Notes under the pieces: generated by a model
The model's input: the letters and a program-made list of their open reading frames with translations, nothing else
What the model was told of the DNA's origin: nothing
Database searches by the model: none
Assembly (NCBI GenBank): GCA_027468165.1
Contig: GCA_027468165.1_3951.1
Direction: 5' to 3' (one strand)
DNA length: 64,000 nucleotides
DNA from: a phage
Translations under genes and position numbers: made by a program
Shown here: positions 2,939 through 19,249 of the stretch, one piece after another
How the letters are laid out: each line of letters begins with the position of its first letter
Numbering within the stretch: the stretch's first letter is position 1

Positions 2939-2976
2939 TCAACGCAGCGGGGCTAAAATAGCCCCAGATACCTTTA

Positions 2977-3027
2977 AAGCCCCTTTATACTGATTCGATA
3001 GAATCTATCTCATAGGGGCTTTTTTAC
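2977..3027 (+). terminator. Terminator-like hairpin (AAGCCCCT ... AGGGGCTT followed by TTTTTT)
   Basis: 8-bp GC-rich stem with a large loop then T6; downstream of the plus-strand early genes. Confidence 0.45.
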
Positions 3028-3097
3028 GTCCTATCAAATCCCTTCCCTTCCCCTTTCCAGAATCTATCCCACTGATTCGATAGAATCTATCTCATAC
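2990..3097. repeat. 25-bp direct repeat CTGATTCGATAGAATCTATCTCATA (2990-3014 and 3073-3097)
   Basis: Exact duplication read directly. Confidence 0.8.
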
Positions 3098-5259: not shown

Positions 5260-5692
5260 ACTTATTGTTGTTGTTCTTAATGAGGTCTTCTTCTGTTACT
5301 AAAAATGTAAGACCACACAAGTGTGTGTATCTGCTATCATACTCAAATATTTTAAGTAAGTATTTACCATCGTGATAAACAAATTCTACTACACCTTTTG
5401 CAACAATCTTTCCAGTCTTGAAATCTTTAAGAGGGTATACATTACCAACTTTAGGAACTGTTTTCATCTCAGGTTCTTTTAGCTTCTCACCAACTTCTAC
5501 ATCACCTAGTAAGTGAGAACTCTCAAACGCTACATATTGCATATAAGCTTCTGAGCATTCCCAGATAAAGCAACTTACAAGAACCTTAGCAGCATGTCTT
5601 GAACAATTCAACTTATCACAAATCTCTTTGTACATTTCATCTTTAGTTGAGTTATCAAGCATTGCTTTTTGAACAACTTCTTTAATTTTCAT
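5228..5692 (-). CDS. Hypothetical protein (154 aa)
   Basis: ORF track. Confidence 0.5.
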   Translation of the reverse strand: MKIKEVVQKAMLDNSTKDEMYKEICDKLNCSRHAAKVLVSCFIWECSEAYMQYVAFESSHLLGDVEVGEKLKEPEMKTVPKVGNVYPLKDFKTGKIVAKGVVEFVYHDGKYLLKIFEYDSRYTHLCGLTFLVTEEDLIKNNNNKFAVPDYQVLR

Positions 5693-5745: not shown

Positions 5746-5970
5746 TTACTCAGACTTTTCAGTTTTCTTATCGGATTTCTTACTAGCCTTCTTCTCAGCT
5801 TTCTGTTCAGGTTCCTTCTCAGAAGTTGCCTTAATAACCATATCAAGAAGCTCTGATAAGTCACTCTTCAGTAGAGTAACGGGCTGCTCATTGTAGAAGT
5901 TTTTGTCAAGATAATCTTTGAACTCTTCAATAGAAGGAAATCCAAAAATTGGTACAGGTGTCTTAATCAT
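5746..5970 (-). CDS. Hypothetical protein with lysine-rich C-terminal tail (74 aa)
   Basis: ORF track; C-terminus EPEQKAEKKASKKSDKKTEKSE. Confidence 0.45.
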   Translation of the reverse strand: MIKTPVPIFGFPSIEEFKDYLDKNFYNEQPVTLLKSDLSELLDMVIKATSEKEPEQKAEKKASKKSDKKTEKSE

Positions 5971-11714: not shown

Positions 11715-11765
11715 AAAGTTGTTGACAAAGGACTTGACAAGGTGTAGGCTTATAAATACTTAGAA
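11715..11765 (+). promoter_or_regulatory. Putative promoter region at the minus-to-plus strand switch (tandem TTGACA boxes, motif ACTTGACAAGGTG)
   Basis: AAAAAAGTTGTTGACAAAGGACTTGACAAGGTGTAGGCTTATAAAT; the -10 element is ambiguous. Confidence 0.35.
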
Positions 11766-11871
11766 GATTACTTAAAAGGTTCCTCTAAAAAGGCTATTTA
11801 AACAGATATCTTTCTGGATATCTATCTTTTATCTTAAAAGCCTTTTAAGAGGTCTTATAAGAGGCATACCA

Positions 11872-12243
11872 ATGAAAAACAGAACAAACAAAGGCCAGTT
11901 TAAAAAAGGCCAGTCTGGAAACCCATCTGGAAGACCAAAAGGCTCTCGTAACAAAAGCTCTCTCGTAAAAGCTCAACTGACCATTGATAATTCTGCTGAG
12001 TTTGCTGCAAAGCTGTTTGAGGCGATTGTTACAAGGGACGCTGCTAAGCTTGCAGAGTTCGGTTTGACGACTGACGATGTAAACCTGAAGTCAATGATGG
12101 AAGCTGGTAAAACTATCATGACCCACTCAGCAGGTGAGATGAAAGCAATTGCAGCAGACACTAAGAAGACTCCTGATAACGGTGGTCAACAACAGACAGA
12201 TAACAAACCAACGTTCTCTGCTGTAGCAACTCTCAAAAAATAA
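11872..12243 (+). CDS. Small basic protein with N-terminal GNPSGRPKG motif (123 aa)
   Basis: ORF track; motif recurs in many uncharacterised phage proteins, function not assigned here. Confidence 0.5.
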   Translation: MKNRTNKGQFKKGQSGNPSGRPKGSRNKSSLVKAQLTIDNSAEFAAKLFEAIVTRDAAKLAEFGLTTDDVNLKSMMEAGKTIMTHSAGEMKAIAADTKKTPDNGGQQQTDNKPTFSAVATLKK

Positions 12244-12324: not shown

Positions 12325-13740
12325 ATGAGCGAGTTATTTAAACATGCGCACCTTCATACAGGTCGAACTGAAAATGGTGCTGTAAACCATACTTCATCAA
12401 TGTCTGCTCTGGTAGACTTCTACAAAGCCGCTGGCTCAAGCCGTAGCAATGTAGAAATCTTACCAGACCTGTTCTACAAAGCTTTGCGTGAGGATGTTGA
12501 TGTTGCAGTTCGTATTTTACTGCATATGCGAGATGTACGAGAAGGTATGGGCGAGCGTAAAGCTTTCCGAACTGTTTTACTTCAAGCAATTGAAGATAAG
12601 GTTTTAGAGCCTACACAGGTTCTTCGCATCATGGATAAGATTGCAGAACTTGGTCGTTTTGATGACTTCAAAATCTTCGTAGGTACTCGTTTTGAGACAG
12701 ATTCCTTCAAACATTTAGAAGCAGCATTACTAGACCCTGCAACAGCAGGTTTAGCAGCTAAGTGGTTGCCACGAGTAAAACCACGCCACAAACAGTTTGT
12801 AAAACGTTTCTGTAAGTTTGCAAACTTGAGTGAGAAGGAGTATCGCACACTGTTATCTGCACTGTCTGATACGGTTGAGCAAAAAATCTCTGCTAATGAT
12901 TTTGGTAAGATTGACTACAGCAAGATTCCTTCACTCGCTGCTGCACGTTACCAAAAGCTCTTTAACCGTAAAGATGGGGAACGTTACAAAGCTTATATCG
13001 AGTCACTCTCAAAAGGTGAGGCTAAGATTAACGCTGGTGCTGTTTACCCATACGATGTGATTAAATCTATTAAGTATGGTAATGCAGATGTTGCTAATGA
13101 GCAGTGGAAAGCACTTCCAAACTGGATGGCAGAAGGTGAAAACATCTTGTGTATGACTGATGTCTCAAGCTCAATGTCTTGGGTGAATCTTGGTTCAATC
13201 ACTGCCCTTGATATTGGTGTATCCCTTGCCTTGTATGTAGCAGAACGCAATACAGGTTGCTTTAAAGATGAGTTAATGGTCTATTCAACAAACCCTCATT
13301 TCATTGAACTGAGTGGTGATTTACGAAACCGTCATCGTCAGGTGATGCGACATGTTGAATATGGTTCAACTAACTTACAAGCAGCTTTTGACCGCATTCT
13401 TGAGGTAGGTAAGCGAAACAAATTGACTCAGAAAGATATGCCAAGTAAGCTTATCATCTTCTCTGATATGGAGTTTAATCAGGTTGATGGTGCAAATGGT
13501 CGTACAAACTTTGAAGCAATTCAGAGTAAGTACAAAAAAGCTGGATATGAGATGCCACAACTAGTATTCTGGTACTTAGCAAACCGTAATGGTACTTGCG
13601 AAGTGTCTGTTAAGGATAATGGTGTAGCAATGGTATCAGGGTTCTCTCCAGCCACTTTAAAAGCTCTGCTTGGTGGTGAGAAGTTTGACCCAATCAGCGT
13701 AATGCTCAAAGCAGTAATGATTGACCGTTACATCTGGTAA
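12325..13740 (+). CDS. von Willebrand factor A (vWA) domain protein with MIDAS motif; N-terminal ~270 aa unassigned (possibly TROVE-like)
   Basis: DxSxS motif (CMTDVSSSMS) followed by a vWA-like beta strand (KLIIFSDMEF); strong SD; sits immediately upstream of the tRNA array. Confidence 0.65.
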   Translation: MSELFKHAHLHTGRTENGAVNHTSSMSALVDFYKAAGSSRSNVEILPDLFYKALREDVDVAVRILLHMRDVREGMGERKAFRTVLLQAIEDKVLEPTQVLRIMDKIAELGRFDDFKIFVGTRFETDSFKHLEAALLDPATAGLAAKWLPRVKPRHKQFVKRFCKFANLSEKEYRTLLSALSDTVEQKISANDFGKIDYSKIPSLAAARYQKLFNRKDGERYKAYIESLSKGEAKINAGAVYPYDVIKSIKYGNADVANEQWKALPNWMAEGENILCMTDVSSSMSWVNLGSITALDIGVSLALYVAERNTGCFKDELMVYSTNPHFIELSGDLRNRHRQVMRHVEYGSTNLQAAFDRILEVGKRNKLTQKDMPSKLIIFSDMEFNQVDGANGRTNFEAIQSKYKKAGYEMPQLVFWYLANRNGTCEVSVKDNGVAMVSGFSPATLKALLGGEKFDPISVMLKAVMIDRYIW

Positions 13741-13752
13741 AAAGTTTTAAAA

Positions 13753-13787
13753 AGGGTATTGACAATGTGTTTGATACCCTTTAATAT
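13753..13787 (+). promoter_or_regulatory. Putative promoter: A-tract, TTGACA 13759-13764, 17 bp, TAATAT 13782-13787
   Basis: Near-consensus sigma70 elements; likely drives the tRNA array. Confidence 0.55.
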
Positions 13788-13842
13788 GTTCTACATAGAA
13801 ACGAAATGAGAGCTTTTCTAAGATACTGAAAATATTTTAAAA

Positions 13843-13878
13843 AAGTTCTTGACAACCACTAAAAAATAATGTTAAAGT
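13843..13878 (+). promoter_or_regulatory. Putative promoter: A-tract, TTGACA 13849-13854, 18 bp, TAAAGT 13873-13878, inverted repeat AACCACT/AGTGGTT
   Basis: Read directly. Confidence 0.5.
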
Positions 13879-13904: not shown

Positions 13905-13981
13905 CTCTGTTTAGCTCAGCTTGGTAGAGCGTTCCGTTTGGGGCGGTAAGGCCGGAGGTTCAAGTCCTCCAACAGAGACCA
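13905..13981 (+). tRNA. tRNA-Pro (anticodon UGG)
   Basis: Manual fold: acceptor CTCTGTT/AACAGAG, D-arm GCTCAGCTTGGTAGAGC, anticodon loop TTTGGGG, T-arm GGAGG-TTCAAGT-CCTCC, CCA encoded. Confidence 0.7.
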
Positions 13982-13988
13982 AATTAAT

Positions 13989-14066
13989 GTTCCAGTAGAC
14001 AAAATGGTATAGTCACCACTCTTTCAAAGTGGATATTTGAGGGTTCAAATCCCTTCTGGAACGCCA
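13989..14066 (+). tRNA. tRNA-Glu (anticodon UUC)
   Basis: Acceptor GTTCCAG/CTGGAAC, anticodon stem-loop CCACT-CTTTCAA-AGTGG, T-loop TTCAAAT, CCA encoded. Confidence 0.75.
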
Positions 14067-14073
14067 GTTTTGA

Positions 14074-14146
14074 CAGAAGACCAATTGCAGCAAACTTAAT
14101 CTTATTCATCTGACACGAAATCGGACAAAGAAGAGATTTGGTCTGG
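14074..14146 (+). repeat. tRNA-spacer element E1 (5' CAGAAGACC ... 3' GGTCTGG)
   Basis: Conserved termini able to pair (AGACC/GGTCT); starts 8 nt after tRNA-Glu and ends 12 nt before the next tRNA. Confidence 0.5.
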
Positions 14147-14157
14147 TCATTAAGAAT

Positions 14158-14234
14158 TGCGGGTATAGAGAAAGGGCGTCTCACATGTCTCATTAGCATG
14201 GTATCGGCAGGTTCGACTCCTGCACCCGCCTCCA
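14158..14234 (+). tRNA. tRNA-Met (anticodon CAU), initiator-like
   Basis: Anticodon stem-loop CATGT-CTCATTA-GCATG, T-arm GCAGG-TTCGACT-CCTGC, acceptor with unpaired 1:72 position; D-arm atypical. Confidence 0.55.
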
Positions 14235-14240
14235 ATTTTG

Positions 14241-14300
14241 CAGAAGACCGTATGCAGCAATAAACTACTTTTTGCGGATAAAAGAAAAAACACGGTCTGG
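14241..14300 (+). repeat. tRNA-spacer element E2 (CAGAAGACC ... GGTCTGG)
   Basis: Same terminal motifs and same placement relative to flanking tRNAs as E1. Confidence 0.5.
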
Positions 14301-14311
14301 CAATGTATTAA

Positions 14312-14385
14312 GGTTAGGAAGCACATAAGGTATGTGCGGTCGCCTGTTAAGCGAATGGCACAGGGTTCGAATCCCTGACTAACCG
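14312..14385 (+). tRNA. tRNA-Asn (anticodon GUU)
   Basis: Acceptor GGTTAGG/ACTAACC, D-stem GCAC/GTGC, anticodon loop CTGTTAA, T-arm CAGGG-TTCGAAT-CCCTG. Confidence 0.65.
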
Positions 14386-14396
14386 CAAATTTAAAT

Positions 14397-14484
14397 GTGT
14401 CGTTATCCCGTAGATGGTAGCGGTGGGGACTGTAAATCCCTTGTCATTGAGACTCGGTAGGTTCGACTCCTACACGGCACACCA
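14397..14484 (+). tRNA. tRNA-Tyr (anticodon GUA), long variable arm
   Basis: Acceptor GTGTCGT/ACGGCAC, anticodon loop CTGTAAA, ~14-nt variable arm, T-arm GTAGG-TTCGACT-CCTAC, CCA encoded. Confidence 0.7.
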
Positions 14485-14545
14485 ATTTTGAGAGGGCTAT
14501 TTAGCCCCTCCCTTAAAGGGTTCTTACGAGTATCCTTTAAAGGAG

Positions 14546-14619
14546 CAGAAGACCAAATACAGCAAGTTACTTAAAATTTCAAGCTAATTTAATTTTGAAA
14601 AATTTAAAACTTGGTCTGG
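14546..14619 (+). repeat. tRNA-spacer element E3 (CAGAAGACC ... GGTCTGG)
   Basis: Same terminal motifs. Confidence 0.5.
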
Positions 14620-14632
14620 CTCAACAAATTTA

Positions 14633-14763
14633 CAGAAGACCGTTTACAGCAAAACTTAAACAATCTATTTCTCGGTAAAGAAAAGGCGAAGGTTCGATTC
14701 CTTCACTCGGCAGATGTCGAGTTGGTGTAATGGTAGCACTTAAGATGATAAACAACGGTCTGG
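14633..14763 (+). repeat. tRNA-spacer element E4 (CAGAAGACC ... GGTCTGG) enclosing a tRNA-like fragment
   Basis: Same terminal motifs; interior contains T-arm and acceptor-like hairpins. Confidence 0.5.
14688..14739 (+). other. tRNA-like fragment in permuted order (T-arm + 3' acceptor strand, then complementary 5' acceptor strand + D-arm); no anticodon arm
   Basis: GAAGG-TTCGATT-CCTTC then ACTCGGC, 4-nt gap, then GTCGAGT + TGGTGTAATGGTAGCAC; the two acceptor strands are complementary. Confidence 0.3.
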
Positions 14764-14866
14764 TAATTATCTTTGCAGTAGCTTATGTGGCTAATTATGT
14801 CGTCCCATGAGTGCCGATGAATTTCCTTAGCATGATTCTAGATTAGCTTAATAGGAAATGACTCTA

Positions 14867-14887
14867 CAGACCCTTTAGCAAGGTCTG
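14867..14887 (+). repeat. Minimal spacer element E5 (CAGACC-CTTTAGCAA-GGTCTG)
   Basis: Shares the AGACC/GGTCT closing stem and GCAA motif with E1-E4. Confidence 0.4.
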
Positions 14888-14914
14888 CGTAGGTTACTGC
14901 AAAGATAATTTAAT

Positions 14915-14990
14915 GGAAGTGTAGCAGAATGGTGATGCGGCAGACTTTTAATCTGACAGGCGACGGGTTCGAATCCCTCCACTTCTACCA
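14915..14990 (+). tRNA. tRNA-Lys (anticodon UUU)
   Basis: Acceptor GGAAGTG/CACTTCT, anticodon loop CTTTTAA, T-loop TTCGAAT, CCA encoded; T-stem weak. Confidence 0.6.
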
Positions 14991-14994
14991 ATAT

Positions 14995-15071
14995 GGTTCA
15001 GTCGCAGATAAGGTAATGCAAGGGTCTCATAAGCCCTATGAATGTGGGTTCGATTCCCATCTGAACCTCCA
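14995..15071 (+). tRNA. tRNA with anticodon CAU (elongator Met or Ile-lysidine)
   Basis: Acceptor GGTTCAG/CTGAACC, anticodon stem-loop AGGGT-CTCATAA-GCCCT, T-loop TTCGATT, CCA encoded. Confidence 0.65.
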
Positions 15072-15072
15072 A

Positions 15073-15148
15073 GCTGGTATAGTTAAGAAGGTTATAACAC
15101 TCCCCTGATAAGGGAACATCGGTGGTTCGATTCCACCTACCAGTACCA
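15073..15148 (+). tRNA. tRNA-Ile (anticodon GAU)
   Basis: Acceptor GCTGGTA/TACCAGT, anticodon loop CTGATAA, T-arm GGTGG-TTCGATT-CCACC, CCA encoded. Confidence 0.7.
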
Positions 15149-15157
15149 ATTTCAATA

Positions 15158-15192
15158 AAGTTGTTGACATTGATATGTGACCACTTTATAGT
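15158..15192 (+). promoter_or_regulatory. Putative internal promoter: A-tract, TTGACA 15164-15169, 17 bp, TATAGT 15187-15192
   Basis: Near-consensus sigma70 elements. Confidence 0.5.
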
Positions 15193-15484
15193 AACTAAAA
15201 TACTTCATAATATGTATAATTCAAACACCAATACATGAGCGTTAGACGTAACACAATGTGGGGAAATTTGTTGTACATATTCTGAATAGTTTTCGTTGCG
15301 TAGCGTCTATTTTGCAAATTTAAAATAAATGCAAACGACAATGTTTTTCTGGCAGTAGCTTGATAGGCTAAACACCAGTGAGGTCTTCCAATCCCTCATC
15401 AAAGAATTTGGCGTACTCGCCCACGGTATGATTAATAAGGTGGGCATCTTTAAGGGTTTTTTAAGAGAGTCTTTAAAGATTAAT

Positions 15485-15561
15485 GCACCCTTAGTTCAAC
15501 TGGACAGAACAAATGACTTCTAATCATTAGGTTACAGGTTCGAATCCTGTAGGGTGTGCCA
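15485..15561 (+). tRNA. tRNA-Arg (anticodon UCU)
   Basis: Acceptor GCACCCT/AGGGTGT, D-stem GTTC/GAAC, anticodon stem-loop AATGA-CTTCTAA-TCATT, T-arm ACAGG-TTCGAAT-CCTGT, CCA encoded. Confidence 0.75.
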
Positions 15562-15576
15562 GTTTAAGAGGTATAT

Positions 15577-15918
15577 ATGAAGAACGGCTCTATAGGAGAA
15601 ATTGCAACTCAACTTGAGTTTATGAAGATGGGATATGAAATCTACTCACCAGCAACTGACAATGCTAGGTATGATTTTATAGCTCACAAAGACGGTAAAC
15701 TTTATAAAGTTGAAGTTAAATCCACCTCAAGGAAAGTTAGAGATGTATGGAAAGTGCAACTAAAGAGAGTTCATTCAAATAGAAGTTCAAACAGAATAGC
15801 TAACTTTGATAACACGTTAGTTGATTTCTTATCAGTTTATATTGAACCTCTTGAAAAGGTTATAATCCTTAAAGCTAAAGACGTTACTTCAAAAACTGAG
15901 TTAAGCTTAAGGGTTTAG
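15577..15918 (+). CDS. Small PD-(D/E)xK nuclease-like protein (113 aa) embedded in the tRNA array
   Basis: Motif D(FIA)...KVEVKS resembling the PD...(D/E)xK catalytic core; strong SD. Confidence 0.5.
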   Translation: MKNGSIGEIATQLEFMKMGYEIYSPATDNARYDFIAHKDGKLYKVEVKSTSRKVRDVWKVQLKRVHSNRSSNRIANFDNTLVDFLSVYIEPLEKVIILKAKDVTSKTELSLRV

Positions 15919-16027
15919 ATTATCTTCTGTAAGGAGGTGGTCTGTATCTCATGTTTCCAGAACATGTAAATAATCTGAGAAGGGGCTTTACAGTGTTGCG
16001 AAAATACGGTAAGCTTCGAATTATAGT

Positions 16028-16110
16028 ATGGGACGATGTTAAGACTCTAAGGCATGAGCAACGGCTTCCAACACCGTTTCAAAGGGGTTCAACTCCTCCG
16101 TCCCATGCCA
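16028..16110 (+). tRNA. Atypical tRNA-like gene, possibly tRNA-Trp (anticodon CCA) with enlarged D-region
   Basis: Perfect acceptor ATGGGAC/GTCCCAT, anticodon stem-loop ACGGC-TTCCAAC-ACCGT, T-loop TTCAACT, CCA encoded; D-region ~7 nt too long. Confidence 0.4.
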
Positions 16111-16122
16111 AGTCTTATTAGG

Positions 16123-16210
16123 GGTAGGTAGCGGCTAATGGTAGCCAAACTGTCTTGAAAACAGTTGCCACTGTAGAGATACGGTGAGGGTTCGACTCCT
16201 TTACTTACCG
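16123..16210 (+). tRNA. tRNA-Ser (anticodon UGA), long variable arm
   Basis: Anticodon stem-loop ACTGT-CTTGAAA-ACAGT, ~20-nt variable arm, T-loop TTCGACT. Confidence 0.6.
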
Positions 16211-16465
16211 CCTAATAAGATTTAAAGCCAAGCTTCATTCGGATGTTGCTTTGGTATCCCTCGTGTATTGTCGTACACAAGTAAAGCACCTAGTAGGTGT
16301 CACGGAGAAGAGATAATATCAAGCTCTCCAAAGGTTCTAGTCACCGGATTAAACAAGACTATGCAAAGGCCTATTTAGGTCTTTTTAGAGGGCTTCTAAG
16401 GTTATTACAGCTTGTTGTGGAACCTTGTTGCTTAGGTTCTTAGAAGTTCTCTAAAAAGATTTAAT

Positions 16466-16543
16466 GGGAGATTGACGGTAATTGGTAAACCTATCTCGCT
16501 TAGAACGAGATGTTTGAGGGTTCGAATCCCTTGTCTCCTACCA
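16466..16543 (+). tRNA. tRNA with anticodon UAG (Leu), short variable region
   Basis: Acceptor GGGAGAT/GTCTCCT, anticodon stem-loop TCTCG-CTTAGAA-CGAGA, 5-nt variable region, T-arm GAGGG-TTCGAAT-CCCTT, A73, CCA encoded. Confidence 0.6.
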
Positions 16544-16550
16544 AATTAAT

Positions 16551-16626
16551 GCAGGTGTAGCAAAATGGTTATGCGGCTGACTCTTAATCAGTAAGACGAT
16601 GGGTTCAATTCCCTCCACCTGTACCA
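16551..16626 (+). tRNA. tRNA-Lys (anticodon CUU)
   Basis: Acceptor GCAGGTG/CACCTGT, anticodon stem-loop GCTGA-CTCTTAA-TCAGT, T-loop TTCAATT, CCA encoded. Confidence 0.65.
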
Positions 16627-16632
16627 GACATT

Positions 16633-16708
16633 GGGGATGTAGTTTACATGGTTAAAACATAAGTTTTGCAAACTTAAGTACAGGGTTCAATTCCCTGCTT
16701 CTCCACCA
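16633..16708 (+). tRNA. tRNA-Ala (anticodon UGC)
   Basis: G3:U70 wobble pair in acceptor stem, D-stem GTTT/AAAC, anticodon stem-loop TAAGT-TTTGCAA-ACTTA, T-arm CAGGG-TTCAATT-CCCTG, CCA encoded. Confidence 0.75.
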
Positions 16709-16714
16709 ATTAGT

Positions 16715-16789
16715 GCATCCATAGTTTAAACGGGAAAATTACAGTCTTCCAAACTGAGGTTGAGGGTTCGATTCCCTCTGGATGCTCCA
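16715..16789 (+). tRNA. tRNA-Gly (anticodon UCC)
   Basis: Acceptor GCATCCA/TGGATGC, anticodon loop CTTCCAA, T-arm GAGGG-TTCGATT-CCCTC, CCA encoded. Confidence 0.7.
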
Positions 16790-16796
16790 AATTAAT

Positions 16797-16873
16797 GCTG
16801 CTTTCGTATAATTGGCTATTACACATCCCTTGTAAGGATGGAAATGCAGGTTCGAGTCCTGTGAGCAGCACCA
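16797..16873 (+). tRNA. tRNA-Thr (anticodon UGU)
   Basis: Acceptor GCTGCTT/GAGCAGC, anticodon stem-loop CATCC-CTTGTAA-GGATG, T-arm GCAGG-TTCGAGT-CCTGT, CCA encoded. Confidence 0.75.
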
Positions 16874-16968
16874 ATTCAGAGGTCAAGTGAAAGACCGCTG
16901 GTGTCAACTGAAGACCGTAACAAATTCCACGGAGTTGAGTTAGCGGCACAACTTCAGACCTCTTTCAT

Positions 16969-17043
16969 ACTCGCTTAGTTTATATGGTAAAACACCACCC
17001 TTACAAGATGAAGAAAAAGGTTCAAGTCCTTTAGTGAGTACCA
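16969..17043 (+). tRNA. tRNA-Val (anticodon UAC)
   Basis: Acceptor ACTCGCT/AGTGAGT, D-stem GTTT/AAAC, anticodon loop CTTACAA, T-arm AAAGG-TTCAAGT-CCTTT, CCA encoded; anticodon stem weak. Confidence 0.6.
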
Positions 17044-17044
17044 T

Positions 17045-17122
17045 GTTCCAGTATCCCAATTGGTAGAGGATGCAAGCTCAAACCTTGTACTAGTGACGGT
17101 TCGAATCCGTCTTGGAACACCA
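17045..17122 (+). tRNA. tRNA with anticodon CAA (Leu), short variable region
   Basis: Acceptor GTTCCAG/TTGGAAC, anticodon stem-loop GCAAG-CTCAAAC-CTTGT, 6-nt variable region, T-arm GACGG-TTCGAAT-CCGTC, A73, CCA encoded. Confidence 0.6.
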
Positions 17123-17236
17123 ACTTTAGGAGAGCACTGTGAGTGATAAGTCAATAGCAAAAAAGTTTAGAGCGTCATACCTAAACAGACGTAAAAACAG
17201 AGATTGTGAAAAACTGTATGGTGTTCTTGTAGGTAA

Positions 17237-17312
17237 GCAGGATTAGTTCAAATGGATAGAGCAACAGTCTACGAAGCTGTTAATAGGGGTTCGAATCCCT
17301 TATCCTGCGCCA
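17237..17312 (+). tRNA. tRNA-Arg (anticodon ACG)
   Basis: Perfect acceptor GCAGGAT/ATCCTGC, anticodon stem-loop ACAGT-CTACGAA-GCTGT, T-loop TTCGAAT, CCA encoded. Confidence 0.75.
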
Positions 17313-17331
17313 ATTTAAAGAGGCTATTTAG

Positions 17332-17889
17332 ATGAGATATTTGAAGTATGCTTCATGGATTTTCTTAGCTTTGTTAGAGCCATTTGCAGCAATCTTAGCA
17401 GTTATCTTAGCACCTTTCGTAGTTCCATTTTACAGTGAGAAGAAAGGACACTTACCTTTCGGCTTCAGATGGATGGAAACATACGACAACCCAATTGATG
17501 GTGATAAAGGTCATGTCGAACGGTGGGCTAAGATTAGAAAGATTGGTAAGCTCGGTGTCTACATGCAGAGAGTTGGATGGCTCTGGAGAAACAAAGCTTA
17601 TAACTTCTCTTACCATGTGTTAGGAAGAGATGTAAAAGATGTTACTAAGTGGAAAGGTAATATCAATGTAAGTTCTAACCCTGAAGATAATCAGACAGGT
17701 TATCTCCTAATGTGGAACAGTAATGCTTGGGGGTTATTCGCTTTTATCCCATCAATTAAAGTCTTTGGTAAACAATTCTACTGGAGAATTTATGTTGGGT
17801 GGAAACTTAAAAGTGTTGTCCCAGAAGAAAGAGCATTCTCAAGGGAAAGAGTTATGTTGGCATTCTTTATTCATCCACTGAGAAAGTAA
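17332..17889 (+). CDS. Membrane protein with hydrophobic N-terminus (185 aa) embedded in the tRNA array
   Basis: ORF track; N-terminal segment WIFLALLEPFAAILAVILAPFVVPF; ATG 20 nt after tRNA-Arg. Confidence 0.5.
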   Translation: MRYLKYASWIFLALLEPFAAILAVILAPFVVPFYSEKKGHLPFGFRWMETYDNPIDGDKGHVERWAKIRKIGKLGVYMQRVGWLWRNKAYNFSYHVLGRDVKDVTKWKGNINVSSNPEDNQTGYLLMWNSNAWGLFAFIPSIKVFGKQFYWRIYVGWKLKSVVPEERAFSRERVMLAFFIHPLRK

Positions 17890-17897
17890 AGATTTAA

Positions 17898-17973
17898 AGG
17901 GGATTAGTTTACAAGGTTAAAACCTCGGTCTTTGAAATCGAAGAAGTTGGTTCAATTCCAACATCCCCCGCCA
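17898..17973 (+). tRNA. tRNA-Gln (anticodon UUG)
   Basis: D-stem GTTT/AAAC, anticodon stem-loop TCGGT-CTTTGAA-ATCGA, T-arm GTTGG-TTCAATT-CCAAC, CCA encoded; position 1:72 unpaired. Confidence 0.65.
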
Positions 17974-17975
17974 AT

Positions 17976-18054
17976 GCTCCATTACTCCAATTGGCAGAGA
18001 GGCCAGACTTAAAATCTGTGTTATGTATCGGTTCGAATCCGATATGGAGTACCA
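17976..18054 (+). tRNA. tRNA with anticodon UAA (Leu), short variable region
   Basis: Acceptor GCTCCAT/ATGGAGT, anticodon loop CTTAAAA, 7-nt variable region, T-arm ATCGG-TTCGAAT-CCGAT, A73, CCA encoded. Confidence 0.6.
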
Positions 18055-18059
18055 AATTT

Positions 18060-18135
18060 AGCGGTATAGCATAACTGGCAATGCAACAGTCTCTGAAGCT
18101 GTCTTATTAAGGTTCAAATCCTTATGCCGCTGCCA
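18060..18135 (+). tRNA. tRNA-Gln (anticodon CUG)
   Basis: Acceptor AGCGGTA/TGCCGCT, D-stem GCAT/ATGC, anticodon stem-loop ACAGT-CTCTGAA-GCTGT, T-arm TAAGG-TTCAAAT-CCTTA, CCA encoded. Confidence 0.7.
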
Positions 18136-18166
18136 CTTCTAAGGGTTCTTACGAGAGTCCTTAAAT

Positions 18167-18242
18167 GTGGCCTTATCATAAATGGTAATGACCCATGCTG
18201 TGAACATGGTCTATACGGGTTCAAATCCCGTAGGTCACCCCA
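18167..18242 (+). tRNA. tRNA-His (anticodon GUG)
   Basis: Acceptor GTGGCCT/AGGTCAC, D-stem TCAT/ATGA, anticodon stem-loop CCATG-CTGTGAA-CATGG, T-arm ACGGG-TTCAAAT-CCCGT, C73, CCA encoded. Confidence 0.75.
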
Positions 18243-18247
18243 ATTTA

Positions 18248-18324
18248 TAGTCCAAGTAGCTTATATGGTTAAAGCGCGTGTCTGAAAAACATGAGAAGAG
18301 GGTTCAAATCCCACTGGACTACCA
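18248..18324 (+). tRNA. tRNA-Phe (anticodon GAA); ends uncertain
   Basis: D-stem GCTT/AAGC, anticodon stem-loop CGTGT-CTGAAAA-ACATG, T-loop TTCAAAT; acceptor pairing admits two registers. Confidence 0.55.
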
Positions 18325-18340
18325 ATTTCAAAGGTGCTTA

Positions 18341-19075
18341 ATGAAAGAGATGACAGAACAAGGTAAGGAGATTTTTAATCTCTTAAAAACTGGTAGAGGG
18401 TTTTCTAATCCCCTTATTACTGGTGCAGCAGTTCTCGGTGGAACCGTAGCTGCCTCTACATCACTTGTAAGCTCTATTAGCTCTGTAACAGACCCTACAA
18501 TAAAGGATAAACTTGTTGCGGCTGGACTTACAACAGTTCTGCTTAACAGCTTTACAACGAGTCTGACAAGCACTACATCAACCACTAAGACACTGACAGA
18601 TTACGGTCAAAAGTCCATTGATGAGTTTTCATCACGTATGCAGGTAGCAAAAGGATATTCCAATGTTATGGGTGCAGCAGGAGAACAAGTCGGTTGTACA
18701 CCATTTAGTGGTATTATGGGTGTTGCTACAGAGTACGGTCAAAAAGCTATTGACACAATTAACAGTACACTAGATGGTGTTAATGATGTATTAAGTGACT
18801 TACAAGATGCTATTGATAAAGGTCTTGATACTGTTTCTGATTTAGCTAATCAGGCTGTTAGTAAGATTAATGAAGGTATTTCGAAGATTACAGCTTATGC
18901 AAATGAAGTTGTGCAGATGATTGAAGAAGAAGCTGCCCTTATTGCAGAGTACCTTAAAACGAATATCAATGGGTTCTTAGCAGGTATCTTACCAGACTGG
19001 TTTGATGATGCTTGTAAAACTGGTGTGATTGACACTATTGCAACACCAGAAATGAAGAGCGCATTACAGAAATAA
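18341..19075 (+). CDS. Hypothetical Ser/Thr-rich protein (245 aa from the ATG at 18341)
   Basis: ORF-track frame trimmed to the first ATG downstream of tRNA-Phe (MKEMTEQ...). Confidence 0.5.
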   Translation: MKEMTEQGKEIFNLLKTGRGFSNPLITGAAVLGGTVAASTSLVSSISSVTDPTIKDKLVAAGLTTVLLNSFTTSLTSTTSTTKTLTDYGQKSIDEFSSRMQVAKGYSNVMGAAGEQVGCTPFSGIMGVATEYGQKAIDTINSTLDGVNDVLSDLQDAIDKGLDTVSDLANQAVSKINEGISKITAYANEVVQMIEEEAALIAEYLKTNINGFLAGILPDWFDDACKTGVIDTIATPEMKSALQK

Positions 19076-19076
19076 T

Positions 19077-19169
19077 GGAAGATTAACCCTAAAAGGTAAG
19101 GGAGCAGTTTGCTAAACTGCCAGTAGCTGAGAAATCGGTGTACCAGTTCAAGTCTGGTATCTTCCTCCA
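19077..19169 (+). tRNA. tRNA-Ser (anticodon GCU), long variable arm
   Basis: Acceptor GGAAGAT/ATCTTCC, anticodon stem-loop GCAGT-TTGCTAA-ACTGC, ~21-nt variable arm, T-arm ACCAG-TTCAAGT-CTGGT, CCA encoded. Confidence 0.6.
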
Positions 19170-19173
19170 ATTT

Positions 19174-19249
19174 GAATCCGTGACAGAAATGGCTATGTGC
19201 CTGTCTGCAAAACAGGTTTATAAGGGTTCGAGTCCCTTCGGATTCTCCA
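19174..19249 (+). tRNA. tRNA-Cys (anticodon GCA)
   Basis: Perfect acceptor GAATCCG/CGGATTC, anticodon stem-loop CCTGT-CTGCAAA-ACAGG, T-arm AAGGG-TTCGAGT-CCCTT, U73, CCA encoded. Confidence 0.7.

Follow-up and report, generated by a model that had tools for sequence, protein, structure and literature searches.

We analyzed a 64,000-nucleotide (nt) stretch of DNA, called the window here (contig GCA_027468165.1_3951.1), from a Felix-O1-like phage. We found that a spacer in its tRNA array contains a conserved, structured element, E4 (14636-14762, + strand; 127 nt), that carries a tRNA-like segment in permuted order. The spacer (14485-14914; 430 nt), which has tRNA-Tyr on one side and tRNA-Lys on the other, is 99.5% identical to Salmonella phage BPSELC-1; 252 phage records match. 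It has four modules: a pair of hairpins (~14487-14545), a stem-closed AU-rich element (E3), the stem-closed E4, and a long hairpin (14764-14912). None of the GenBank records examined has an RNA feature annotated over the spacer. A gene for a Ro60-like protein lies upstream.

E4 is closed by a basal stem of 7 base pairs (bp), in which GACCGUU (14638-14644) pairs with AACGGUC (14754-14760). The stem is flanked by AA on its 5' side and by UG on its 3' side, and a single-stranded sequence, UACAGCAA (14645-14652), adjoins its 5' strand. Both the minimum free energy (MFE) and the centroid folds contain the permuted tRNA-like domain (14655-14744, + strand). This domain is closed by a 5-bp helix that resembles an anticodon stem (CTTAA at 14655-14659 with TTAAG at 14740-14744), and the order of its parts is a variable hairpin (14664-14686), the T arm, a tetraloop-closed acceptor stem, and the D arm.

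A first-pass annotation of the window had described the region from 14688 to 14739 as a permuted tRNA-like segment, and direct reading of the sequence bears out this description exactly. The T arm (GAAGG-TTCGATT-CCTTC; 14688-14704, + strand) is adjoined at its 3' end by the 3' strand of the acceptor (ACTCGGC; 14705-14711). A 4-nt loop (AGAT; 14712-14715) then leads to the complementary 5' strand (GTCGAGT; 14716-14722). Together these make an acceptor-like hairpin (14705-14722, + strand; loop AGAU) of 7 bp, one of which is G-U. After TG (14723-14724) there is a D-arm-like hairpin (GTGT-AATGGTA-GCAC; 14725-14739, + strand), and no anticodon arm is found 3' of it, also as described. The T arm has the equivalents of G53-C61, T54, T55, C56 and A58. 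The D arm has those of A14, G18, G19 and A21, and the U8 equivalent precedes it at 14723. That is, the nucleotides of the tRNA elbow (U8, A14, G18, G19, G53-C61, T54, T55, C56 and A58) are all present, and all are invariant.

We compared 14 distinct E4 sequences from Felixounavirus, Mooglevirus and Suspvirus (Ounavirinae; alignment A3). The acceptor helix was 99% paired, and three of its seven pairs differed on both sides. Its versions included ACTCGGC/GTCGAGT, ACCCTTC/GAAGGGT and ACACGT/GCGTGT, and its loop varied in both length and sequence (AGAT, TACG, GCCAAACA). The T arm and the stem of the D arm were unchanged in all 14 sequences; position 14734 in the D loop varied. The closing helix was 80% paired and the variable hairpin 87%. 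For the whole structure, in none of 500 shuffles was the covariation score or the percentage paired as high as observed. As a control, the partners were slid by 1-3 columns, and pairing fell from 94% to 44-49%. The T, acceptor and D hairpins all appear in the MFE fold of E4 (z = -2.39; 5 of 200 shuffles folded as well), and the 430-nt spacer folds at z = -5.1 relative to shuffles. The arrangement of T arm, acceptor and D arm exceeds chance. Covariation in the acceptor together with invariant T and D arms is not what would be expected of a decaying remnant.

ARAGORN and Rfam searches were also used to check the segment. ARAGORN predicted 25 tRNAs in the window (13905-19249, all + strand) and none at 14688-14739; a conventional tRNA at this site, named beforehand as the result that would speak against the permuted fold, was not predicted. 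The Rfam families for tRNA, tmRNA and YrlA were all unmatched at the site, both at the gathering threshold and at E <= 10, and neither a standard nor a permuted tmRNA was recognized at E4 by ARAGORN or Rfam. The only tRNA-family signal was a partial match to the T arm (RF00005; 14.9 bits, threshold 29 bits).

E4 is one of four paralogous elements in the tRNA array. E1 (14077-14145, + strand; AAG-ACCAAT-UGCAGCAA...UUGGUC-UG) lies between tRNA-Glu and tRNA-Met and is kept in Ounavirinae loci. E2 (14244-14299, + strand; AAG-ACCGUA-UGCAGCAA...ACGGUC-UG) lies between tRNA-Met and tRNA-Asn, and E3 (14549-14618, + strand; AAG-ACCAAA-UACAGCAA...UUGGUC-UG) has an AU-rich insert. The lengths are 69-70 nt for E1 and E3 and 56 nt for E2. 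The four elements have a basal module in common: AAG, a stem of 6-7 bp, U(A/G)CAGCAA, a variable insert, the 3' strand of the stem, and CUG. Only E4 has a tRNA-like insert. The motif AGAAGACC-NNN-U(A/G)CAGCAA occurs four times in the array, and each copy is followed 30-100 nt later by NNN-GGUCUGG, in which the NNN complements the first NNN. When the whole window was scanned for the motif with up to three mismatches, there were 6 matches compared to 0.84 expected, and no shuffle reached 6. All of the Ounavirinae loci examined carry at least one such element, and up to four, and the paired NNN differs among paralogues. Several GenBank records have short hypothetical proteins annotated across E3 and E4 (for example HP1_22, at 2956-3084 of locus L002; also H42, H46, H50, H54 and H60), and a 39-amino-acid open reading frame (ORF) in the window (14611-14730) resembles them. 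These short ORFs are most likely a mis-annotation of an RNA locus.

The gene upstream of the array (12325-13740, + strand) encodes a protein of 471 amino acids. It matches Pfam families DUF2828 and DUF7788 and PHROG 850 ('RNA-binding protein'), and has a vWA domain with an intact MIDAS (metal-ion-dependent adhesion site). A phmmer search of the protein against PDB sequences gave nothing relevant, and a link to Ro60 therefore required comparison of folds. An AlphaFold model, for which 40 homologues were used, had a predicted local distance difference test score (pLDDT) of 88.7 and a predicted template modeling score (pTM) of 0.88. In a Foldseek search of PDB with this model, the top ten matches were all Ro60, over the full length (E 1e-7 to 2.5e-6; template modeling (TM) score up to 0.65), with alignments that spanned ~510-540 columns. 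The top matches included those from Xenopus (2i91, 1yvr, 1yvp), Deinococcus (2nvo) and Thermus phage phiLo (9kop, 9l5y), along with human complexes; the next matches below Ro60 were isolated vWA domains. The MIDAS residues D279, S281, S283, T349 and D381 (DxSxS...T...D) were invariant in the 40 homologues. The protein is predicted to have a HEAT-repeat ring and a vWA domain with a MIDAS, as does Ro60.

Elements with the same basal module are linked to DUF2828 genes well beyond this phage. We searched 75 viral contigs, each with a gene for a DUF2828 homologue (38-47% identity; loci are labeled L plus a number), with a strict pattern: AA, a 6-bp stem, CAGCAA, the complementary strand, and TG. 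There were 54 matches, compared to 1 in shuffled sequence, and 34 of the 75 loci had at least one closed element. Counting the motif only, 62 of 66 occurrences were on the gene strand. The complementary strand plus TG closed 47 of these 66 occurrences (71%), compared to 3 of 43 chance occurrences in unrelated control contigs. The elements cluster within ~1 kb on either side of the DUF2828 gene. In fourteen of the viral loci with elements, the locus (up to 6 kb on either side) was free of tRNA genes, indicating that the linkage is to the protein gene and not to tRNA arrays. In 80 loci from bacterial and archaeal assemblies (33-43% identity) there were 51 matches on the gene strand, 5 on the opposite strand and 7 in shuffled sequence; Firmicutes loci mostly had no match to the pattern. 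Overall, adjacency of gene and RNA element on the same strand, at distances of tens to a few hundred nt, holds across homologues down to 33-47% identity. No described Rfam family covers the elements at the gathering threshold or at E <= 10.

Some of the distant elements have inserts like that of E4. Two elements lie in tandem in L081 (44% protein identity; elements at 5285-5400 and ~5422-5535), both with permuted tRNA-like inserts in the E4 order: a canonical T arm (GGTTCGAGTCC), a GAAA-closed acceptor-like stem, and a canonical D arm (TAGCTCAGTTGGTAGAGC). The acceptor-like stem has 7 bp in the first element and ~3 clear pairs in the second. The element at 9105-9225 of L078 has a T arm followed by two more hairpins. 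Other distant elements have different inserts in the same scaffold. In L125 (5733-5835), an AAG/stem/UUCAGCAA...CUG scaffold surrounds a complete tRNA-Thr(tgt) (ARAGORN call at 5753-5824), which suggests that real tRNAs can be captured by the scaffolds or give rise to them. At least three other recurrent insert types, none described before, are found in unrelated contigs: one with GAACCUUUCUGGAGGGGAAAGCAAAAACUCGCC, a large one of 210-256 nt with CCUAGGACGAUGUAAAAGGUUCGAAC...GUCCCUUAC, and a third with GAUAUAGCUGC(C/A)GAGCCGAA. Elements with such inserts include L079 5275-5372, L080 3132-3234, L082 148-282, L092 1264-1375 and L105 5733-5830, elements of 209-256 nt in L087, L092, L105 and L106, and others in L102, L104, L120 and L131. 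Because different inserts occur in one scaffold, the scaffold appears to act as a carrier of interchangeable modules.

Based on the anatomy of the segment, its covariation, the paralogous elements, the predicted Ro60-like fold, and the conserved linkage of gene and RNA, we think it probable that the E4 segment is the tRNA-mimic module of a Y-RNA-like partner RNA of a divergent Ro60-like protein, with a build like that of YrlA. A tRNA mimic of the Y-RNA type was among the readings offered in the first-pass annotation, and it is supported by the order of the parts, which matches YrlA, by the conserved stem scaffold, and by the Ro60-like-fold gene ~0.9 kb upstream. Several results weigh against this reading. 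The folding signal of E4 by itself is modest (z = -2.4), and the equivalent of the Levitt pair is non-canonical (A15 with C or A at position 48). The YrlA family (RF02553) was unmatched over 14485-14914 at E <= 10, and the YrlA motif GNCGAAN0-1G is absent from the basal module of E4, which reads CAGAAGACC...UACAGCAA. The upstream protein has no sequence-level match to TROVE; its only Pfam matches are DUF2828 and DUF7788. About half of the distant DUF2828 loci have no match to the strict pattern, and many of the 'bacterial' loci are contigs of metagenome-assembled genomes and may be prophage or phage DNA. Lastly, the pattern scans demand stem pairing, so covariation of the stem in those sets is partly built in; the biases in strand and position and the control counts therefore serve as the independent evidence.

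Other explanations can be set against the same results. The elements could be spacers or processing elements of the tRNA operon (entry sites for RNase E, RNase III or RNase P, or insulators), with the tRNA-like part of E4 serving only as a handle for RNase P and the proximity to DUF2828 due to a shared tRNA-array neighborhood. All four elements in the window do lie between tRNAs, tRNAs are also present in 20 of the 34 distant loci with elements, and the L125 scaffold encloses a whole tRNA-Thr. However, the 14 loci described above have an element directly beside the DUF2828 gene and no tRNA gene, and six DUF2828 loci have tRNA genes and no element detectable by pattern. In addition, the conserved single-stranded UACAGCAA with its fixed AAG and CUG flanks resembles a site recognized by a protein, and the dictyostelid RNAs with the same signature (see below) are free-standing and abundant (PMC7919456). 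We consider a processing role for E1-E4 unlikely. It also seems quite unlikely that a different phage or host factor binds the basal module and that the DUF2828 protein is a co-regulated neighbor acting on other RNAs. The only direct binder shown for a dictyostelid Class I RNA, Rnp1A, is consistent with such a factor (PMC7919456). This view does not readily account for the tight same-strand linkage to DUF2828 genes, down to 33-47% identity and in unrelated genomic contexts, nor for a predicted fold shared with the one family for which pairing with adjacent modular small RNAs is known.

The remaining alternatives, both raised in the first-pass annotation, concern the segment itself and did not hold up. 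One is that it is a tRNA remnant, specifically a decayed junction at which the 3' end of a degenerate tRNA gene abuts the 5' end of the next (an artefact of dimeric tRNAs). The location in a tRNA array fits this origin, and tRNA dimers can be mistaken for YrlA (Chen et al., PMC4201824). The acceptor strands, however, form a helix together and covary, showing compensatory changes between genera; flanking anticodon arms are absent, and a conserved stem encloses the unit. Furthermore, the segment copies no resident tRNA: in a search for such an origin, likeness to the resident tRNAs did not go beyond the universal T loop. Distant phages have the same design, beside DUF2828 proteins that are ~44-47% identical. 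We regard decay as very unlikely. The other is a circularly permuted tRNA gene, the transcript of which would be circularized and re-cut into a functional tRNA, for example the tRNA-Asp or tRNA-Trp that ARAGORN does not find among the 25 tRNAs of the window. The 3' half does precede the 5' half, but there is neither an anticodon nor an anticodon loop; the 5-bp 'anticodon' stem gives way to an internal loop, beyond which lies the conserved basal stem. Relatives that have a normal tRNA-Asp keep E4 unchanged. A de-permuted version of E4 made with three artificial loops gave no genes in ARAGORN at default settings, and only a forced, odd fold at a relaxed threshold. A permuted gene is thus extremely improbable.

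If E4 is a Y-RNA-like partner of the DUF2828 protein, it may function as follows. E4 would be a small non-coding RNA of ~127 nt, transcribed with the phage tRNA array, and E1-E4 would be cut out of the array transcript. The Ro60-like DUF2828/vWA protein would bind the AAG/stem/UACAGCAA/CUG module. The insert of E4 would mimic the tRNA elbow and the acceptor/T minihelix and so recruit, or act as a decoy for, a factor that recognizes tRNA; candidates are RNase P, the CCA-adding enzyme, modification enzymes, a nuclease, or a repair enzyme. By analogy to Y RNAs and Ro60, E4 could be an adaptor between the ring protein and this factor, and the ribonucleoprotein might be targeted to the factor or sequester it, much as a Y RNA tethers Ro60 to PNPase. 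It is also possible that RNase P cleaves E4 between 14715 and 14716, comparable to its action on the YrlA of M. smegmatis; cleavage there is plausible because E4 has a full 7-bp acceptor and a T arm. Possible roles are in the quality control of tRNA or RNA as infection proceeds, or in counteracting host defenses directed at tRNA.

Several other features lie near E4. Two matches to the sigma-70 promoter consensus (TTGACA-17-TAATAT and TTGACA-18-TAAAGT; consensus matches only) are located between the Ro60-like gene and the first tRNA (13759-13878, + strand), and we found no terminator-like site on the + strand from these to position 15200. The two conserved hairpins that open the spacer (14487-14545, + strand) read GAGAGGGCT...AGCCCCTCC and TTAAAGGGTTCTTACGAGTATCCTTTAA, and the second shows a compensatory change from G-C to A-T in other genera. 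The structured RNA between E4 and tRNA-Lys (14764-14912, + strand; ~150 nt) has a long terminal stem with three internal hairpins. Four of its pairs are changed on both sides among 6 Ounavirinae sequences, and it has no Rfam match. Searches with nhmmer using these two modules gave nothing significant in the distant DUF2828 loci, indicating that both are specific to Ounavirinae. In relatives, tRNA-Asp adjoins the start of the spacer (L005 2282-2358, L002 2767-2840, L003 2423-2497); it is missing at 14484/14485 of the window. Further along the array, a 336-nt spacer before tRNA-Arg has sub-threshold Rfam matches (15295-15484, + strand) to tmRNA (15 bits, E 0.005) and permuted tmRNA (20 bits). 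This region has no motif of the E type, and the matches are probably due to chance. Between tRNA-Arg and tRNA-Ser there is an ORF for a 113-amino-acid PD-(D/E)XK endonuclease (15577-15918, + strand; Pfam PDDEXK_5), which may be a mobile or homing-type insertion. No RNA-repair gene or nuclease partner was identified among the neighboring ORFs.

The elements also resemble the Class I RNAs of dictyostelid amoebae. These RNAs of 42-65 nt begin with AAG and end with CUGU, and have a 6-bp terminal stem that is conserved in structure and not in sequence, with an 11-nt motif beside the 5' strand of the stem followed by a variable middle (PMC7919456). They are free-standing and abundant, have their own DUSE (Dictyostelium upstream sequence element) promoter, and have been reported to be unique to Dictyostelia (PMC7919456). 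Direct binding to a Class I RNA has been shown only for the RRM protein Rnp1A (PMC7919456), and, in the preprint of that work, the uncharacterized DDB_G0281243 was among four proteins pulled down with DdR-21, a Class I RNA. Neither the accession DDB_G0281243 nor conserved DUF2828 peptide motifs were found in the supplements searched; a single match to DVSGSM was to an unrelated vWA protein.

Like the Class I RNAs, E1-E4 have an (A)AG start, a terminal stem that varies and yet remains paired, a CUG end (AAG...CUGG in E1-E4), and, directly 3' of the 5' stem strand, a motif resembling (CC)UUACAGCAA followed by a variable middle. The window elements hold 7-9 of the 11 positions of the Class I motif, CCUUACAGCAA (the window versions are UACAGCAA in E3, UUACAGCAA in E4, UUGCAGCAA in E1 and UGCAGCAA in E2), and several elements from distant phages carry CCUUACAGCAA or UCUUACAGCAA exactly. 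One amoeba RNA reads GGUUCCUUUACAGCAAUC...GGGAAUCUG (curated sequences, supplement 48 of PMC7919456), and the phage element 33 nt downstream of the DUF2828 gene in L093 reads GGUUCCUUACAGCAAAC...GGAACCUG. Dicty_Class_I_RNA (RF01414) was the only Rfam family that aligned recurrently to the elements. It gave full-model alignments of 15-16 bits to E3 and to two elements of L103, and at 15.2 bits was the sole Rfam match of E3; these scores (15.2-16 bits) are far under the gathering threshold of 41.5 bits. L103, a distant phage contig encoding DUF2828, also has a group I intron (11720-11946; Rfam 71.5 bits). There are differences as well. E1, E3 and E4 are longer than Class I RNAs, and only E2 falls within the Class I length range. 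Class I RNAs, unlike the phage elements, come from eukaryotic genes with a DUSE promoter of their own, and have a known direct binder in Rnp1A.

We also made covariance models of the termini. Model R1, built only from the termini of 68 amoeba RNAs, was searched against 1.87 Mb and gave nine matches (E 0.0015-0.05; these E-values are rough), all on the gene strand and 14-417 nt from a DUF2828 ORF. This clustering of the nine matches beside DUF2828 ORFs cannot be due to chance. R1 and model R2, made from distant phage elements, both work with truncated termini on short elements. They fail, even with filters off, to bridge the 40-100-nt inserts of the window elements, and therefore give no verdict on the membership of E1-E4. 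Some amoeba RNAs (asu_can_20, ppa_can_99 and DpuR-22) contain T-arm-like hairpins, GGUUCGA(A)UCC, GGUUCGAUCC or GGUUCGAAUCC (supplement 48, PMC7919456), and in asu_can_20 the T arm is followed by a GNRA-capped stem, making a mimic of the tRNA minihelix as in E4. DdR-66, DdR-67 and DpuR-27 to DpuR-30 have another conserved insert in common, GUAGAAUAGGUGGGAG...GUGAAAUACCACC.

It is possible, and we propose it tentatively, that E1-E4, their DUF2828-adjacent relatives in phages and bacteria, and the Class I RNAs make up one ancient class, as 'Y RNAs' cognate to the DUF2828 branch of Ro60-like proteins. In that case, Class I RNAs would not be unique to Dictyostelia, and their stem and 11-nt motif would be the docking site for a Ro60-like ring protein, with an amoeba DUF2828 homologue or DDB_G0281243 as candidates. 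The variable inserts, including the tRNA mimics of phages and amoebae, would be interchangeable effector modules. This gives a testable hypothesis for the function and origin of Class I RNAs, which are abundant and developmentally important and have been without a mechanism since 2004. More generally, our results point to a large, undescribed family of small RNAs in phages and bacteria that is tied to a widespread DUF protein. The predicted fold would assign a Ro60-like role to the DUF2828 family, and tRNA mimicry of the Y type would be extended to the common enterobacterial phages of the Felix O1 group, which are used in typing and therapy.

We found no prior description of such a system in literature on DUF2828, UCP015417, Felix O1 together with Ro60 or Y RNA, or Class I RNA together with Ro60 or TROVE. 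One of the closest known systems is YrlA, which is encoded beside Ro60 and joins a Ro60-binding stem to a tRNA-like domain in which V, T, an acceptor-like stem-loop and D follow in this order; a smaller RNA, YrlB, often accompanies it (PMC4201824). In M. smegmatis, the acceptor stem of YrlA is 7 bp long, and RNase P cleaves the RNA, to which CCA is also added (PMC4201824). Binding by Ro60 and tRNA-type modifications (pseudouridine 55, dihydrouridine) are further marks of YrlA RNAs. Likewise, E4 combines a stem module with a tRNA mimic in the order V, T arm, closed acceptor stem, D arm. Its acceptor stem also has 7 bp, it has smaller paralogues, and it is close to the gene for a protein with a predicted Ro60 fold. 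In contrast to YrlA, its basal module is AAG/stem/UACAGCAA/CUG and not GNCGAAN0-1G, it is located in a phage tRNA array, and the neighboring protein belongs to Pfam DUF2828/DUF7788 and not to TROVE. The sole GGCGAAG in E4 (14685-14691) falls where the variable hairpin meets the T arm, and conservation does not extend to its C. The sole match to YrlA in the tRNA array is spurious (17 bits, across tRNA-His and tRNA-Phe). Thus, E4 matches YrlA on every anatomical count but is not a member of the YrlA family, because the family model is unmatched, the GNCGAAN0-1G motif is absent, and the protein is not TROVE at the level of sequence.

Circularly permuted tRNA genes, as in Cyanidioschyzon merolae, also have the 3' half before the 5' half. 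They specify full tRNAs, anticodon arm included, and their processing, at bulge-helix-bulge motifs, is carried out by the eukaryal/archaeal splicing endonuclease. E4 has this order of halves but neither an anticodon arm nor a bulge-helix-bulge motif. Phages are known to encode Ro60 together with Y-RNA-like RNAs: Thermus phage phiLo has phiRo60 with Yrl1 and Yrl2 (PMC12135203), and comparable pairs are found in mycobacteriophages, CcrColossus and Bacillus phage G (PMC4201824). The locus in the window is similar in having a protein with a Ro60 fold (predicted here) and two or more adjacent small structured RNAs. It differs in that those phages have canonical TROVE Ro60 and RNAs with the CGAA bulge motif, and neither a tRNA-array setting nor the UACAGCAA module has been described for them. 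E4 probably belongs to the Ro60/Y-RNA kind, set apart by its RNA signature and by the family of the neighboring protein.

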